A stretch of 64,000 bases of DNA from an uncultured Candidatus Rokubacteria bacterium (GTDB lineage: Bacteria; Methylomirabilota; Methylomirabilia; Rokubacteriales; CSP1-6), in assembly GCA_963747235.1 (NCBI GenBank), contig CAVVEU010000002.1:1-64000 (forward strand). The letters are read 5' to 3'. The translations under genes were made by a program, and so were the position numbers. The notes under the pieces are model-generated. The model did not search any database, was not told where the DNA came from, and saw only the letters and a list, made by a program, of their open reading frames with translations. Shown piece by piece: positions 29,984 through 58,423 of this stretch (positions are counted from its first letter, which is position 1; every line of letters starts with the position of its first letter).

Positions 29984-31227
29984 CTAGCCCTTCCACTTGG
30001 GAACCGGGAACACCGGCTTGGCCTCCACGAAGCGCGCGGGGCCCACCACCAGCGGCTTGCCGCCCTGCACCTGCAGCAGCGCGGGGCTGGCGTTGACGTT
30101 CTCGCCCGCGTCGTCGAAGCGAATGGCGTCCTGGGTCAGGATGTGGTCGGTGAGGTTGGTCTTGCTGATCGCGTCGCGCACCTTCTCGCGGTCGGTCGAG
30201 CCGGCCCGCTCCAGCGCGTCCTTCAGCACGAACATCACCTGGTAGCCCTGCACGCCGTGGTTGGACATGACCGAGTTGAAGCGCTTCTGGTACGCGTCGA
30301 ACACCGCGCGGGCCCGCGCGCTCTGCGGATTGTGCCAGTAGTTGCCGTCGAAGAGATGATCGGTGAGCTCGCGGTTCTCGGTGATGAAGCGCGGGATTCG
30401 AGTACGCCGCGTTGGCCAGGCCCACCAGGGCGTGCACCCCGATCCGGAGCTTGGCCGCGGTCTCCGCGATGATCTTGGAGTCGCCGTAGTAGCCGCTGAT
30501 CACCAGCAGGTCGGGCCGCGTCGCCTTCACCTTGGAGAGCTCCGCGGTGAAGTCGGGGGAGCGCAGGTTGTACGGCACGCGCTGCACCAGCTCGTAGCCC
30601 ATCTTGCCCGCGAAGGCCTCCACGTGGTTGCCCATCGTGGTGCCGAAGTTGCCGTCCTCGTGCATCATGGCCACCCGCTTGATCGGGGTGCCCGCGGCCT
30701 TGGCCATCTCCAGCATGTTCCCCACCGTGAGGGTGGCCATGGCGCGGCCGTTCGGCTGCATGCGGAACGTGTAGCGCAGCCCGCCCTCGAGGACGTTGTC
30801 GGCCACGGTGGCCAGCAGGAGGAACGGGGTCTTGTTCTTCTCGGTGACCTGGCGGACCGAGAACGCGACCAGGCTCGAGAAGGGTCCGATGATCGCGGTG
30901 ACGCCCTGATCGATCAGGCGCGCCGCTTCCGAGTTGCCCAGCTCGACCTTGTTCTGGGTGTCGCCCGGGAGCAGGGTGATCTGCGCGCCGCCGAGCGACT
31001 TGATGCCGCCCGCCCCGTTGATCTCGTCCACCGCCTGCTGCAGCCCGTTGAGCGCGAGCTGCGCCTCGAAGGCGAGCGGCCCCGTCACCGGCAGCATGTA
31101 GCCGACCTTCACCTCGCGGGACTGCGCGCGCAGGACGGGCGGGCGCGACGAGGGTGGCGGCGCCCGCGGCGCCCATGGTCGTGAGGAAACGGCGCCGGCC
31201 GATCCGCGTGGTGGTGTCGTTCGACAT
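29984..31227 (-). CDS. Tat-exported ABC substrate-binding protein (frameshifts near 30395 and 31140)
   Basis: GRRRFL twin-arginine signal; VKVGYMLPVTGP, INGAGGIKSLGGA; three ORF pieces; GGAGG RBS. Confidence 0.82.
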
Positions 31228-31638
31228 CGTGTCCTCCGGAGGGAAATCGAGTGAGTGGATGGCGGCGAGCCTAGCATCCACCCCCTACCCTGTCAACGCG
31301 CGGGCCCTCGCCCGCGCGGTGGAATCCGCGCGGCGCCATGTCGTCGTTGCCGGATCTCGCTCATCAGGAACGTGCGCCTCATGCGACCGGATTCTCACGC
31401 GATCGAGACGCGGGAGCGCGGCATGGCGAGCGACCGCTTCGGCCGCGTGGCGCCGGCCAGCGTCGCGACGCGCGCGCGAGATCTTCGCGCGCGCGATGGA
31501 GCGGCCGAGCGCTCCGACGACTTCTGCTCGCGCGCGGGGGCTTCGGTGGCACCGAGCACCTGCCCTCCGGGGTCTCCGCGAGGGCCGCCGCCGCGCGCAA
31601 TCCCGCGCCGCGCTTCGGCCGGGCGCGTCGTAACCCGT

Positions 31639-31698
31639 TCATCCACAGCTATCCACAGGTTTTCCCGCATCCCCAGCCTACCCACATCTTGTGGATAA
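31639..31698. promoter_or_regulatory. DnaA-box cluster
   Basis: Perfect TGTGGATAA at 31690-31698; 1-mismatch TCATCCACA (31639) and CTATCCACA (31649); 2-mismatch CTACCCACA (31678). Confidence 0.7.
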
Positions 31699-31761
31699 CC
31701 GGGCCGCCGACCCCCACTCATGGGGGTGATTCAGTAAGGTCAGAACCCGAAAAGGTACATG

Positions 31762-31790
31762 TTGACTGGGGTTTGCGCTTCGACTAGAGT
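31762..31790 (+). promoter_or_regulatory. Sigma70-like promoter of the DGQHR gene
   Basis: TTGACT-N17-TAGAGT; GGAGG upstream of the ATG at 31842. Confidence 0.6.
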
Positions 31791-31841
31791 ACCCCCTGTT
31801 CCCCCGCTACATAGACCATCCCCACGGAGGCGGATCGGTTC

Positions 31842-32972
31842 ATGATCACGGTTCCCGCGCACCGCGTGAAACAGTTCGGGGTGGAGTTCTTCCAGGCGTC
31901 GTTCTCGGCCAAGGACATCGACCGGCTGGTGAAGTTCGAGGTCCTGGGCTACAGCGGGGCCGAGGAGCCACCGAAGGGGAAGCAGCGCGCCAACCGGGCG
32001 CGGGTGAACTGGGAGGCGCTCGAGAAGCGAATCGGCGAGAGCGAGACCGCCTACCAGCGCCCGGTCATCCGCCGGAAGATCGACGAGCTCGTGGCCTACT
32101 ACCGCGACTGCAAGGACGCGGGCACCCTGCCCGCCATTCCCGGCGCGGTGATCATCACCTCCGAGAAGCGCTTCACCTTCACGCCGATGGCGAGCCAGCA
32201 CGACCTGGGCCTGCTCCAGATCCCGGAGGAGCACGGCGTGCTGCGCGTGCTGGATGGCCAGCACCGGCTGCTCGCGCTGCACGCGCTGACCCAGGCGGGC
32301 GAGAATCTCGGCATCGAGGTGCCCGCGGTGCTCTTCGACCGGCTGGACGCGCGCCAGATCGTCGAGCTGTTCGTCACGATCAACGCCAAGCACACGCGGC
32401 TCAATCCCTCGCACATCGTGAGCCTCGCCGGGCGCAAGCTCTACCCGGATCCCAACCAGGCGCTCGCCCACGACGTGATCCGCTCGCTGAACGAGGACGA
32501 GACCTCCCCGCTCTCGGGCGACATCAAGATGCTCGGCACCGGCCGCGGGCGCGTCTCGCAGGCCCCGCTCGCCGAGGAGATCGTGGACTTCCTCGACGCG
32601 GTCGAGAAGATCGGCGGCGGCGCGCGCATGAACGAGGTGCGCCACCACGCCAAGCGCTTCTTCCTGAACTACATGAAGGCGGTGGCGGGCGTGTTCCCGA
32701 CCGCGTGGGCCGGGCGCAAGTACTCCATCAAGACCGGCGCGGCGCTGCGCGCCTTCATCCGCGTGGCCCCCGACGTCATGGCCCGCGCCCGCGAGCTCAA
32801 GCGTGACGCCTTCGACTTCCACGCCATCCGCGAGGCGGTGAAGCCCTGGAGCGACCGCCTCAAGGACCGCCGCTTCGAGACCGAGGGCGAGTGGAAGAAC
32901 AAGCTGCAGGGCGGGACGCGGGGGACGGTGGAGGCGCTGACGCGGGAGCTGCGCGAGGCACTGCGCAACTAG
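31842..32972 (+). CDS. DGQHR domain protein (DndB-like, ParB/Srx-related fold)
   Basis: YQR motif, IPGAVII, VLDGQHRL, LFVTIN. Confidence 0.88.
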   Translation: MITVPAHRVKQFGVEFFQASFSAKDIDRLVKFEVLGYSGAEEPPKGKQRANRARVNWEALEKRIGESETAYQRPVIRRKIDELVAYYRDCKDAGTLPAIPGAVIITSEKRFTFTPMASQHDLGLLQIPEEHGVLRVLDGQHRLLALHALTQAGENLGIEVPAVLFDRLDARQIVELFVTINAKHTRLNPSHIVSLAGRKLYPDPNQALAHDVIRSLNEDETSPLSGDIKMLGTGRGRVSQAPLAEEIVDFLDAVEKIGGGARMNEVRHHAKRFFLNYMKAVAGVFPTAWAGRKYSIKTGAALRAFIRVAPDVMARARELKRDAFDFHAIREAVKPWSDRLKDRRFETEGEWKNKLQGGTRGTVEALTRELREALRN

Positions 32973-32975
32973 CTT

Positions 32976-33455
32976 CTAAAGCTTCAAAGGGAAGTTTGCC
33001 GCAAGAATGTCGAAGGTTTTCTGACCCGCGGGAAGCGTGGCGGTGACGGTGTCGCCGACTTTCTTGCCGATGATGGTGCGGGCGAGCGGGGACATGATCG
33101 AGATCAGCCCGCGCTTGGGATCCGCCTCGTCCGAGCCCACGATCTGGTAGATCGCCTCCTTGCCGTCCTCGTCCTCGAGGCGCACCGTGGAGCCGAAGGT
33201 CACCCGGTCCCCGGAGGTCGGCGGCTCGATCACCTCGGCGGTGCTGACCTTGCTCTCCAGATCGGAGATGCGCGCCTCGACGAAGCCCTGCCGCTCGCGC
33301 GCCGCGTGGTACTCCGCGTTCTCGCTGAGGTCGCCGTGGGCCCGCGCCTCCGCGATGGCCCGCACGATGTTGGGGCGCTCCTTCTTGAGCCGCTCCACTT
33401 CCTCCCGCAGGCGCTCGTAGCCCGGGCGCGTCATCGGCGTGCGCTGGACGCTCAT
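32976..33455 (-). CDS. greA: Transcription elongation factor GreA
   Basis: [31 protein letters not shown]. Confidence 0.95.
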
Positions 33456-34018
33456 GAGCCGGTCCATGCGCCGATCACCTCGGCGGTCCGCTTCACCTCG
33501 GCGAGGAAGCCGTTGAGGCTGCCCAGGTGCGTGCGGTGGACCTGATCGTGGGGGATGACCGCGCCGTCGGGCCCCTTGACGTCCATGGCCGCGGTGGCGT
33601 CGGAGAGCAGCGTCACCTTGAAGCCGCGATGCGCCGCTTCCCGCGCGGTGGTGTCGCAGCACATCTGGGTCATGAACCCGGAGACGATCACCCGCTCGAT
33701 GCCGAGATCCCGCAGCGCCGACTCGAGCGACGTGTTCGTGAACGAGCCCGGCAGGTGCTTGGTGATCACCGGCTCGCCCGCCACGGGCGCCACCGCGTCG
33801 TGGATCGCGAGCGCGGGGCTACCCGGCACGAAGGTGGCGGCGCCGGGCCGCTGGCTCTCGTGCACGATGTGGAAGACCGGCATCCGGCTCGCGCGCGCCC
33901 ACCGCAGGGTCTCCGCGATGCGCGCCACCGCCTTGGGCCCGTCCGGCAGCACCACCTTGCCGATCGGGGCGAAGTACTCCTGCTGGGCGTCGATGATGAG
34001 GAGCGCGGTCCTGTCCAT
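33452..34018 (-). CDS. Isochorismatase-like cysteine hydrolase
   Basis: [27 protein letters not shown]. Confidence 0.88.
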
Positions 34019-39599: not shown

Positions 39600-40775
39600 C
39601 TAGATACCGAAGGCGTCGAGGCCCGTGATGTCGCGGCCCACGATCAGGGTGTGGATGTCGTGGGTGCCCTCGTAGGTGTTCACGGTCTCCAGATTCATCA
39701 TGTGCCGGATGATCGGGTGCTCGTCCACGATGCCGGCCGCGCCCAGGATGTCCCGCGCGAGCCGCGCGCCGTCGAGCGCCATCTGCACGTTGTTCATCTT
39801 GGCCATCGAGATCTGCTGCGGCCGCACCCGGCCCGCGTCCTTGAGCTGGCCGAGCCGGAGGCAGAGGAGCTGGGCCTTGGTGATCTCGGTGATCATCCAC
39901 ACGAGCTTCTGCTGCACGAGCTGGAACGAGCCGATCGGCTTGTTGAACTGGATGCGCTGCTGGGAGTACTGGAGCGACCAGTCGTAGCAGGCCATCGCGG
40001 CGCCGATGGCGCCCCACGCGATGCCGTAGCGCGCCTGGGAGAGGCAGGAGAGCGGGCCCTTGAGCCCCTTCACCCCGGGCAGCTTGTTCTCCAGCGGGAT
40101 GCGGCAGTCCGCGAAGGCCAGCTCGGAGGTGATGGACGCGCGCATCGAGAACTTCCCGTGGATGTCCATCGTGCTGTAGCCCGGCGTGCCCTTCTCCACC
40201 AGATAGCCGCCGATCTCGCCGTCGTCGCCCTTGGCCCACACCACCGCCACGTCGGACACCGAGCCGTTGGTGATCCAGAGCTTGGTGCCGTTCAGCACGT
40301 ACTCGTTGCCCTTCTTCTGGGCGCGCGTCTTCATCCCGCCCGGGTCGGAGCCGTGGTCGGGCTCGGTGAGGCCGAAGCAGCCGAGCGCGGCGCCGGACTG
40401 CAGCCGCGGCAGCCACTTCTCCTTCTGCGCGTCGGAGCCGTAGCTGTAGATCGGGTACATGACGAGGCCGCTCTGCACCGAGGCGAAGGACCGCAGGCCC
40501 GAATCGCCGCGCTCCAGCTCCTGCATGATGAGCCCGTAGGCCACGTTGTCGAGGCCGGCGCAGCCGTAGCCCTTGAGCGTGGCGCCGAACACGCCCATCT
40601 CGCCCAGGTCCTTCGCGAGCTCCAGGGGGAAGGTGCCGTCGCGGTGGTGCTGGCTCACGATGGGGAGGAACTTCGCCTCGACCCAGTCGCGGACCGCGTC
40701 GCGCATCATGCGCTGCTCTTCGGTCAGGAGCTCGTCGAACCCGTAGTAGTCCACGCCGCGGAACTTTTCCATCAC
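39600..40775 (-). CDS. Acyl-CoA dehydrogenase, glutaryl-CoA dehydrogenase-like
   Basis: ELERGDSGLRSFASVQSGLVM, CFGLTEPDHGSDP, NTYEGTHDIH. Confidence 0.9.
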   Translation of the reverse strand: MMEKFRGVDYYGFDELLTEEQRMMRDAVRDWVEAKFLPIVSQHHRDGTFPLELAKDLGEMGVFGATLKGYGCAGLDNVAYGLIMQELERGDSGLRSFASVQSGLVMYPIYSYGSDAQKEKWLPRLQSGAALGCFGLTEPDHGSDPGGMKTRAQKKGNEYVLNGTKLWITNGSVSDVAVVWAKGDDGEIGGYLVEKGTPGYSTMDIHGKFSMRASITSELAFADCRIPLENKLPGVKGLKGPLSCLSQARYGIAWGAIGAAMACYDWSLQYSQQRIQFNKPIGSFQLVQQKLVWMITEITKAQLLCLRLGQLKDAGRVRPQQISMAKMNNVQMALDGARLARDILGAAGIVDEHPIIRHMMNLETVNTYEGTHDIHTLIVGRDITGLDAFGI

Positions 40776-57447: not shown

Positions 57448-58423
57448 CTACGCCAGCTCGGCGAGCGCGACGCGACGGCCCAGTGAGGACGAGCGCTGCG
57501 CCGCCTCCACCGTGCGGAGCGCGTCGAGCCCCGCCTGCACGTCCACCGCGGGAGGGCACCGGCGGGTCACCGCGTCCAGGAACCCCTCGAGCTCGTGGCG
57601 GAGCGGCTCGGGCCCGGAGGCCTTGAAGCTCTCCACCGCGCCCTCCGGCGCCTGCCAGCCCGACGGCGTCTCCACGTGGCGGTTGGCGAGCACGCGCACC
57701 TCGGAGGTGCCGAAGTCGGCGGCGAGCGTCCCCTGCTCGCCCACGATCACGCAGTCGCGGGCGGTCCCGGGGGCGAAGTAGCCGGCCTCCACGAAGGCGG
57801 GGACGTCGCCGTACTCCACCGTGGTGAACGAGCAATCGTCGAGGCCACGGCCGAGGTGATCGCGCAGGGTGGCGGTGACCGCGGTGGCCGGGCGCCCGAG
57901 CAGATGGGCGAAGAGGTCGAAGTAGTGGATGGCGTCCGTCTGCGTCACGCCGACGTCGGTGCGCGGGCGCTTGAAGCCGGCGAAGCGGCCCGGTGCAGTA
58001 GCGCACGCGCCCGATCGCGCCCGCGGCCAGCCGCTCGCGGAGCGCCGTCGTCACCGGATGGAAGCGGAAGATGTGCCCGACCTGCAGCACGCGGAGCGTC
58101 TGGGCCACGATCGCGGCGAGACGGCGGCCCTCGTCCACCGTCAGCGTGAGCGGCTTCTCGACGAAGCAGTCGCGGCCCGCGCGCAGGCACTCCGCGGCGA
58201 GGGCCAGGTGATTGTCGGCCGGCGTCACGATGTCCACCGCGTCCACGTGCGGCAGCGCCTGGCGGAAGTCCTCGACCGCGCGCGCCGCCGCCACGCCGGC
58301 CTTGATCGCGAAGGCGCGCCGCTCCGCCGAGACGTCGGCCACCCAGAGCTCGACGCCCAGCTCGCCGAGCACGCGCAGGTGCTTCTCGCCCCAGCGCCCC
58401 AGGCCGACCAGCAGCACCTTCAC
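57448..58423 (-). CDS. Gfo/Idh/MocA oxidoreductase (frameshift near 57990)
   Basis: GLGRWG, CFVEKP, QVGHIFRFHP, DAIHYFD. Confidence 0.88.

Follow-up and report, generated by a model that had tools for sequence, protein, structure and literature searches.

A DnaA-box-like array upstream of an orphan DGQHR gene

We analysed a 64-kb stretch of DNA (the window) from contig C2 of an uncultured Candidatus Rokubacteria bacterium, whose genome (G000) comprises 5.57 Mb in 42 contigs at ~71% G+C, with 88% completeness and 4.9% contamination. The locus under study, at 31639–32972, consists of a cluster of DnaA-box-like 9-mers, a palindrome, a promoter and a stand-alone gene for a DGQHR-domain protein. 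Boxes were counted by their mismatches against TTATCCACA, which we take to be the DnaA-box consensus. Five such 9-mers are packed into 60 bp (31639–31698): one is perfect, two carry one mismatch and two carry two. Box A (TCATCCACA, 31639–31647, plus strand; direct reading and pattern search) and box B (CTATCCACA, 31649–31657, plus strand; pattern search) have one mismatch each, form direct repeats with B starting 10 bp after A, and are both kept in the genus. Box C (GCATCCCCA, 31667–31675) and box D (CTACCCACA, 31678–31686), both on the plus strand and read by eye, have two mismatches each and are separated by 2 bp. Box E is a perfect TTATCCACA on the minus strand (31690–31698, found by pattern search; plus-strand reading TGTGGATAA). 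It lies 3 bp after D and is opposed to it, which gives the trio the layout C> D> <E, and its end is 63 bp before the −35 element. The original prediction, made from the sequence of the window, had described one perfect and several near-consensus boxes within 60 bp, the first two 10 bp apart, and this cluster is confirmed.

Between the array and the gene lies a palindrome, CCCCCA-CTCA-TGGGGG (31711–31726; with one more base pair on each side, ACCCCCA-CTCA-TGGGGGT at 31710–31727), a candidate operator or hairpin. It occurs once in the whole genome, which rules out a repeated parS-like site, and its palindromic character is kept, with changes, in relatives. The promoter, TTGACT (31762–31767)–N17–TAGAGT (31785–31790) on the plus strand, was found by a consensus scan and is the sole sigma-70-like match in 31200–33200 (1 found; mean of 0.1 in shuffles). 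Just 5′ of its −35 is the A-tract GAAAAGG (31749–31755, plus strand), whose AAA columns are conserved in the alignment and which looks UP-element-like. With a start point placed from the −10, a putative 5′ leader runs over 31797–31841 on the plus strand and contains GGAGG (31826–31830); its length varies among relatives. Part of the stretch is present in six metatranscriptome runs. When leader and spacer were compared with Rfam, nothing scored below E 0.6. The DGQHR gene itself occupies 31842–32972 (plus strand, ATG at 31842) and encodes 376 aa, with DGQHR at residues 138–142. Palindrome, promoter and gene had all been named in the original prediction, and direct reading bears them out.

The density of boxes at this locus is unusual for the genome. 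With ≤1 mismatch, 4 boxes were seen in the window versus 1.48 ± 1.04 expected, and 3 of the 4 belong to this site; the fourth, at 39893, stands alone within a coding region and is read as chance. The whole genome holds 7 perfect boxes and 144 with ≤1 mismatch (~1 per 39 kb), and only 7 places have two or more of the latter within 200 bp. In a weighted 150-bp density scan, the DGQHR site, the dnaA promoter (C2:75.7 kb) and a site at C8:106.4 kb tie for the top, C24:639.3 kb comes fourth, and nothing else reaches the threshold. Being among the three densest box clusters of the genome, the array could chiefly be a chromosomal DnaA-control site (a reservoir, or a datA- or DARS-like element that alters the nucleotide state of DnaA) that is merely located in the intergenic DNA before the DGQHR gene. 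We regard this as possible but rather unlikely, and its five boxes only, two of them weak, speak against it.

Conservation of the array and its distance from the promoter

The upstream regions of the DGQHR gene were surveyed in 30 loci from 41 genomes of relatives of the same order, and in 79 named Rokubacteria loci (80 in all, one dropped for a short flank). A locus was scored as box-bearing when a box with ≤1 mismatch lay within 320 bp upstream of the gene. The relatives compared are not statistically independent of one another. A box is kept in 20/30 and 38/79 loci, respectively. The 20 loci comprise every one of the 18 belonging to the genus or its nearest sister genus, and two further families contribute one locus each. 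Boxes are missing from the remaining loci of both sets, and in other orders (four other families of the class) they are found in 0/14 loci that keep the gene. The conservation that the original prediction had looked for is therefore real in part of the order and stops there. Its description of the locus as a candidate undescribed system is too strong, since roughly every second Rokubacteriales locus lacks boxes, as do 14/14 loci of other orders.

Where the array is present, its arrangement is tightly kept. An alignment of 39 box-bearing sequences shows conserved columns at boxes C, D and E and at both promoter elements (−35 and −10), with part of the spacer between them. Across the alignments, the order C>–2 bp–D>–3 bp–<E is retained together with a loose palindromic element, the A-tract, the −35, a GGGGTTT in the spacer and the −10, and the rest of the upstream sequence drifts between relatives. 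In distant members the trio reads TTATCC[A/C]CA (C), TT[A/G][C/T]CCACA (D) and TGTGGATAA (E). The distance from the end of E to the −35 is 59–65 bp in 38/38 box-bearing named loci despite diverged intervening sequence (six weak look-alikes at 29–258 bp were left out of this count). Because this distance is fixed, control of the promoter by DnaA, as first proposed for the locus, becomes likely rather than established. Such constancy is needless for a free-standing DnaA-control site, and the loss of the array in several lineages also argues against one.

The promoter is kept more widely than the boxes: TTGAC-N16–18-TAnnnT is present in 79/79 named loci and is visible in the order-wide alignment too. 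Box-bearing lineages have a leader of 20–65 nt, carrying a Shine–Dalgarno sequence; measured from −10 to ATG, this length applies to 36/38 box-bearing loci, the other two (L117 and L120) having 9 nt. L117 and L120 show a variant layout, a pair of direct boxes on the opposite strand whose distance is again 64 bp, and L124 carries a decayed version of it. In most box-less loci, the −10 is only 6–10 nt before the ATG, with L113 (22 nt) and L064 and L067 (54–56 nt) as exceptions. The loci with a short −10-to-ATG distance are L078, L082–L083, L085–L086, L088–L095, L097–L112, L114–L116, L118–L119 and L121–L124. The mRNAs of the box-less clade are probably leaderless.

A gene tree of 106 rows was rooted on the 14 loci from other orders. 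Box-bearing rows are found on the deepest Rokubacteriales branches, on several basal branches of family f1 and in a clade of 30 (28 with boxes); box-less rows make up the f3/f4 clade and 40 of the 42 rows of another clade, and three more are scattered over the tree. Box presence needs five changes of state on this tree, three of them forced by well-supported branches. This suggests that the common ancestor of the order may already have had the array and that several lineages lost it, a gene tree of such close proteins being a weak guide.

The DNA further upstream is less constant. Some members of the genus have a UPF0016-like membrane gene in the same orientation that ends 5–10 bp before box A, and in the window the upstream neighbour is a divergent gene for a transporter binding protein, located beyond ~360 bp of non-coding DNA (31278–31638). 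The corresponding stretch in other genus members is occupied by this UPF0016/GDT1-like gene, and the ~360 bp without coding signal are probably a deletion remnant. A small gene within 31278–31638 was ruled out, as its five open reading frames (ORFs) have a third-position G+C of 0.69–0.78, compared with 0.97 in real genes.

The site lies outside oriC but near the origin

No dnaA gene occurs in the window, as had been stated from its sequence, yet dnaA and dnaN are found at C2:75802–78374 on the same contig, 44 kb downstream of the site and 12 kb past the window end. The order there is parB (~71.1 kb), yidC, rnpA, dnaA (75802–77112) and dnaN, a cluster that spans 70–78 kb. On C2, the cumulative GC skew is lowest at 76–78 kb, at dnaA–dnaN, and shows no lasting switch at 31.7 kb; the left arm is weakly negative, which makes this skew soft evidence taken alone. 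In the relative G007, a 300-kb contig has a clean V-shaped skew that bottoms out at 50–55 kb, next to dnaA; its DGQHR boxes (124.8 kb) sit on the rising arm. Based on the skew minima and the positions of the dnaA-region genes, the site is outside oriC but near it, and the skew check suggested for the locus puts the minimum at or beside dnaA in both genomes.

These data also bear on a reading of the cluster as a replication origin or part of one. A dense box cluster adjoining a locally AT-richer stretch would suit an origin, and in some bacteria, e.g. E. coli, oriC lies tens of kb from dnaA. An oriC at the site is nevertheless ruled out by the GC skew on C2 and on the G007 contig and by the position of parB, rnpA, dnaA and dnaN. 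The boxes are moreover missing from 10/30, 41/79 and 14/14 of the loci surveyed, and we give the origin reading next to no credence.

In six genomes (G000, G007, G013, G024, G034 and G036) the DGQHR gene and dnaA are on one contig, and in all six they are 43–85 kb apart, which would fit a DnaA-control site. The gene is oriented towards dnaA in 6/6 of these related, non-independent genomes. If oriC is at dnaA, the DGQHR gene is transcribed head-on to replication. In family f4, the gene is located on the other side of dnaA and still points towards it.

A perfect opposed pair, TTATCCACA-CC-TGTGGATAA, lies 46–65 bp before the dnaA start (C2:75737–75756; L009:11737–11756), and an identical perfect pair lies beside dnaA in G007 (C69:57793–57812; boxes at 57793/57804). 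The pair is probably a dnaA autoregulation site. Since it precedes dnaA and is kept in G007, it indicates that the canonical box consensus is in use here.

The genome holds three full-length dnaA genes, at C2:75802–77112, C24:~822.2–823.6 kb and C13:~104.4–105.7 kb, with 77–79% mutual identity; only the C2 copy has an rnpA/dnaN context. Among 40 relatives (E ≤ 1e-30), one dnaA copy was found in 25, two in 7 and none in 8. The extra copies are either real paralogs or bin contamination (4.9%).

The DGQHR gene is a core gene of Rokubacteria

DGQHR/DndB-like proteins are accessory parts of DNA-modification and defence islands. The protein encoded here passes TIGR03187 (DGQHR) with 121.5 bits against a cut-off of 58.85, and Pfam DndB matches its N-terminal half only (1e-15). 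The DndB equivalog TIGR03233 is not reached (26.7 bits, cut-off 328), the equivalog model for the dnd-linked DGQHR protein scoring far under its cut-off. DpdB is the best-scoring specific family and is not reached either, with 51.2 bits for NF041060 against a cut-off of 300 (8.5e-14 over residues 69–352; PADLOC DpdB 9e-16). DpdB has an ATPase role. By these profile comparisons, the protein belongs to the DGQHR domain family but is neither DndB nor DpdB proper.

The gene is the only DndB-family gene of the genome, and the label of an orphan that it had been given holds: searches of its genome (88% complete) found no DndC, DndD, DndE or DpdA, the one for DndE having lacked a positive control. 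Among the 41 relatives, dndC was found in none, whereas the DGQHR gene was found in 39, including 14/14 high-quality genomes; a strict co-occurrence with dndCDE, which would have spoken against the original prediction, is not borne out. Around it lie genes for a transporter, GreA, an isochorismatase-like protein, a PpiD-like chaperone and a permease. With no dnd or dpd partner found in these searches, a defence locus of either type is rejected.

A phylum-wide survey of 201 genomes (E ≤ 1e-10) found the gene in 150, with one full-length copy per genome and 63–99% identity. By family, it is present in 113/125 genomes of f1, 15/16 of f4, 11/15 of f8, 3/3 of f10, 4/15 of f11 and 1/2 of f12; at this threshold, it was not found in f7 (0/18) or f6 (0/2). 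Four of the genomes counted (G068, G084, G095 and G169), all of them matching, are marked as unpublished; without these, the count is 146/197, and the other claims are independent of them. In best-segment tblastn comparisons, the DGQHR protein is 94–99% identical within the genus, versus 78–92% for GreA and 77–94% for the PpiD-like neighbour, and 73–74% identical in family f4, versus 61–69% for GreA. The first description of the gene as housekeeping-like is upheld by its single copy, its synteny and its identity across the class, and we conclude that it is a single-copy, slowly evolving, vertically inherited core gene of Rokubacteria.

Linkage to greA is part of this synteny. The two genes are convergent, with greA downstream in 57/80 named and 25/30 order-wide Rokubacteriales loci (one or two genes are inserted in some) and in 0/14 loci of other orders. 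The greA linkage noted at the outset is thus real, convergent and confined to the order: it is synteny, not an operon.

Outside the phylum survey, a 50%-identity library gave 110 clusters at E ≤ 1e-30, mostly fragments, and the nearest full-length outsiders in it have 54%, 45%, 44% and 37% identity. On plasmids and phages, the search found only distant DGQHR proteins (≤27% identity), and a query of the ESM Atlas returned nothing but generic DndB clusters.

The DGQHR protein is predicted to form a dimer with a ParB/Srx-like N-domain

An AlphaFold2 model built on a 19-sequence alignment has a mean predicted local distance difference test (pLDDT) score of 79 and a predicted template modelling (pTM) score of 0.55, with weak stretches at residues 37–52, 181–188 and 193–199. 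The N-terminal 185 residues superpose on PadC with a Z of 6.0 (root mean square deviation 3.4, 99 aligned residues), which is below the level counted safe. The other superpositions of this domain are equally modest, namely sulfiredoxin (Z 5.9), a serine kinase (Z 5.7) and KorB (Z 4.8). Foldseek against the PDB gave no match at E ≤ 0.001, the best E-value being 0.037, to Noc, and a sequence search of solved structures returned no relative. The helical C-terminal part has unspecific structural matches only. A relation of DGQHR/DndB domains to the ParB/Srx fold had been given as known in the original prediction; in the model the N-domain does superpose, at modest scores, and is consistent with a ParB/Srx-like fold. 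The DGQHR motif (D138–R142) is invariant in 19/19 aligned sequences, and Q72–R73, N181 and T185 are invariant or nearly so, in both cases down to 28% identity.

A two-copy model gave a symmetric dimer formed via the N-domain, with a score of 0.75 (0.76, 0.73 and 0.75 in individual runs) versus 0.00 for the best control, a contact agreement of at least 64% and a partner pLDDT of at least 74. The predicted interface comprises residues 5–20, 83–104, 116–124, 137–138 and 156–183. As a rough guide, and with our own alignment, the mark used for dimers was reached by 20/30 proteins whose solved structure is a pair of one chain and by 1/23 whose solved structure is a single chain. The modelling thus supports homodimer pairing, short of showing it.

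A symmetric dimer raises another explanation of the array, in which the 9-mers merely resemble DnaA boxes and are bound by a different factor, e.g. by the DGQHR protein as an autoregulator on D and E. These two boxes form the inverted repeat CCACA-N5-TGTGG, and DndB recognises palindromic motifs within the promoter of its own gene (PMC4507180). On the other hand, the same perfect 9-mer forms the opposed pair before dnaA, here and in G007; arrays of the motif elsewhere, including one before the second dnaA copy, persist in families where the DGQHR promoter is box-less; and boxes A and B run in the same direction and form no palindrome. We consider a different binder improbable.

Comparison with known DnaA-responsive sites and DGQHR-type regulators

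In B. subtilis, DnaA-box clusters outside oriC are intergenic and near the origin; some regulate the neighbouring gene and jointly they restrain initiation (PMC3245932). The present site is similar in being one of a handful per genome, in having three or more consensus-like boxes in a short stretch and in lying 44 kb from dnaA. It differs in organism and target gene, in being kept in part of the order only, and in that DnaA binding is predicted here. As a cis element, it has the sequence features of a DnaA-box cluster outside oriC. The double role of the B. subtilis clusters is compatible with a site that chiefly controls DnaA while also affecting the gene beside it.

[quoted passage not shown] The C> D> <E topology, with two tandem boxes and one opposed, matches this three-box core of DARS1 and DARS2 and is kept in 38 named loci, a point in favour of a DnaA-control site. 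The opposed boxes are however 3 bp apart here versus 5 bp in DARS1 (PMC6868365), a comparison that covers distance alone. We also searched for integration host factor (IHF) sites, a feature of datA and DARS2. No match to WATCAANNNNTTR with ≤1 mismatch was found within 14 kb of the site, the window holding three such matches at 45.9, 53.7 and 63.9 kb. We presume WATCAANNNNTTR to be the IHF consensus from its use in E. coli, and it may not hold in this phylum. Of the datA/DARS-like site suggested earlier, the three-box topology stands, whereas the missing IHF consensus and the 3-bp spacing count against it.

There is precedent for DnaA acting on a gene of the ParB family: a recent study reports that it controls gidAB-parAB in Pseudomonas aeruginosa, where DnaA boxes before the promoter regulate an operon encoding a ParB-family protein (PMC13438810). 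The boxes there lie within oriCII and the product is a canonical ParB, whereas here they lie outside the origin, the product is a DGQHR protein and parB is encoded elsewhere. DndB offers a second parallel, repressing its own promoter through palindromic sites (PMC4507180). The protein studied here shares with DndB the DGQHR motif, a match to the N-terminal half of Pfam DndB and a unique palindrome before the promoter; it is unlike DndB in its equivalog score far under the cut-off, the lack of dnd partners in our searches and its standing as a core gene rather than an island gene. With DpdB it shares the best family score, although this amounts to 51 bits versus 300, and no DpdA was found in the genome.

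DnaA may couple transcription of the DGQHR gene to replication status

Taken together, the array, its fixed distance and its position lead us to favour, with confidence a little above even, the reading that the main role of the site is to let DnaA couple transcription of the orphan DGQHR gene to replication status. The locus would then combine a DnaA-binding array with the promoter of a monocistronic DndB/DpdB-like gene, whose product has a presumed ParB/Srx fold. DnaA would nucleate on the opposed pair D/E and on C, extending over A and B in this genus, and would act from about −100 to −160 relative to the presumed start point. Transcription would be raised or lowered by the amount or nucleotide state of DnaA, and the level of the DGQHR protein would track the replication-initiation cycle. 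The protein, as a symmetric dimer, may bind nucleotide and DNA through its ParB/Srx-like N-domain and, by analogy with DndB, could have as its target the unique palindrome that separates the boxes from the promoter of its gene. As for the direction of control, the strong-looking promoter, with its 17-bp spacer and A-tract, suits repression, whereas the upstream position of the boxes suits activation. As a by-product, the array may retain DnaA near the origin, like the DnaA-box clusters of B. subtilis; transcriptional control and a reservoir role are mutually compatible.

Several observations weigh against transcriptional coupling as the main role. Boxes and promoter are separate, the former being at least 59 bp upstream of the −35, too distant for simple promoter occlusion, which again would suit a DnaA-control site. 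The gene and its promoter persist box-less in 41/79 named loci, in family f4 and in 14/14 loci of other orders, and because the gene is kept without boxes in so many lineages, a DnaA input is dispensable. Boxes C and D carry two mismatches each in this genome, and box E reads TGGGGATAA in 10/13 of the closest named loci. The constant spacing could come from another element, e.g. the palindrome, rather than from contact between DnaA and RNA polymerase, and the divergent transporter gene 360 bp from the boxes could be the target. DnaA binding and promoter use are predictions from sequence, the structural superpositions score modestly (best Z 6.0) and the dimer is a modelled one. On balance, the interpretation of the locus in the original prediction is partly supported; the link of the protein itself to replication or chromosome organisation, which that prediction had inferred, gains no support from these results.

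A wider proposal, which we regard as unlikely, is that DndB/DpdB-type regulators gave rise to the DGQHR protein, which took on a housekeeping role. It would be a dimeric, nucleotide-gated DNA-binding protein with a ParB/Srx-like fold, its level would be set by DnaA, and it would act on the chromosome, e.g. by controlling initiation or organising the origin-proximal region, as part of a cell-cycle circuit peculiar to the phylum. Such a circuit would fit the orientation of the gene towards the origin in 6/6 genomes, the additional dnaA copies found in part of the genus and the conserved triple-box module present at other sites in these genomes (see below). A full-text search, with subscription journals outside its reach, found no paper linking DndB-like genes or Rokubacteria to DnaA control.

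If the wiring proposed here is true, it would add a new member to the DnaA regulon and suggest that a fold known so far from defence and plasmid partition can have a housekeeping role. If it is untrue, the site would still rank among the very few strong DnaA-box clusters of these genomes, as a candidate for controlling how much DnaA is available, in a phylum that is widespread in soil and without cultured members. In either case, and in contrast to the island role of its relatives, the gene is a single-copy core gene, better conserved than greA and without modification partners.

Other DnaA-box clusters and minor features

A module of ~55 bp with three direct DnaA boxes 8–10 bp apart (TTGTGGATnAnTGTGGATAAGTGGATAA) is present at three loci of the genome (L005, L006 and L010): C8:106439–106493, beside pyrD; C24:639309–639362, before an SCO4226-like/response-regulator pair; and C24:823856–823911, before the second dnaA copy. 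Homologous loci of the genus retain the module in 12/13 and 13/13 cases, and it also occurs in families f3 and f4. The skew is monotonic on the large contigs C8, C24 and C13, and these other box clusters are therefore not origins either. At C33:46955–46974 (L007), an opposed pair, CTATCCACA-AC-TGTGGATAG, is flanked by genes for a PEP-mutase-like protein and a short-chain dehydrogenase. A lone perfect box at C8:69992 (L012:2993) is found just after a gene for an RNase T/DnaQ-like exonuclease and ~200 bp before a gene for a DksA/TraR-type zinc-finger protein. In the window, the greA ORF downstream of the DGQHR gene (32976–33662, minus strand) is listed with 228 codons, and the GreA domains begin at residue 76; the true greA start is probably internal to this ORF.

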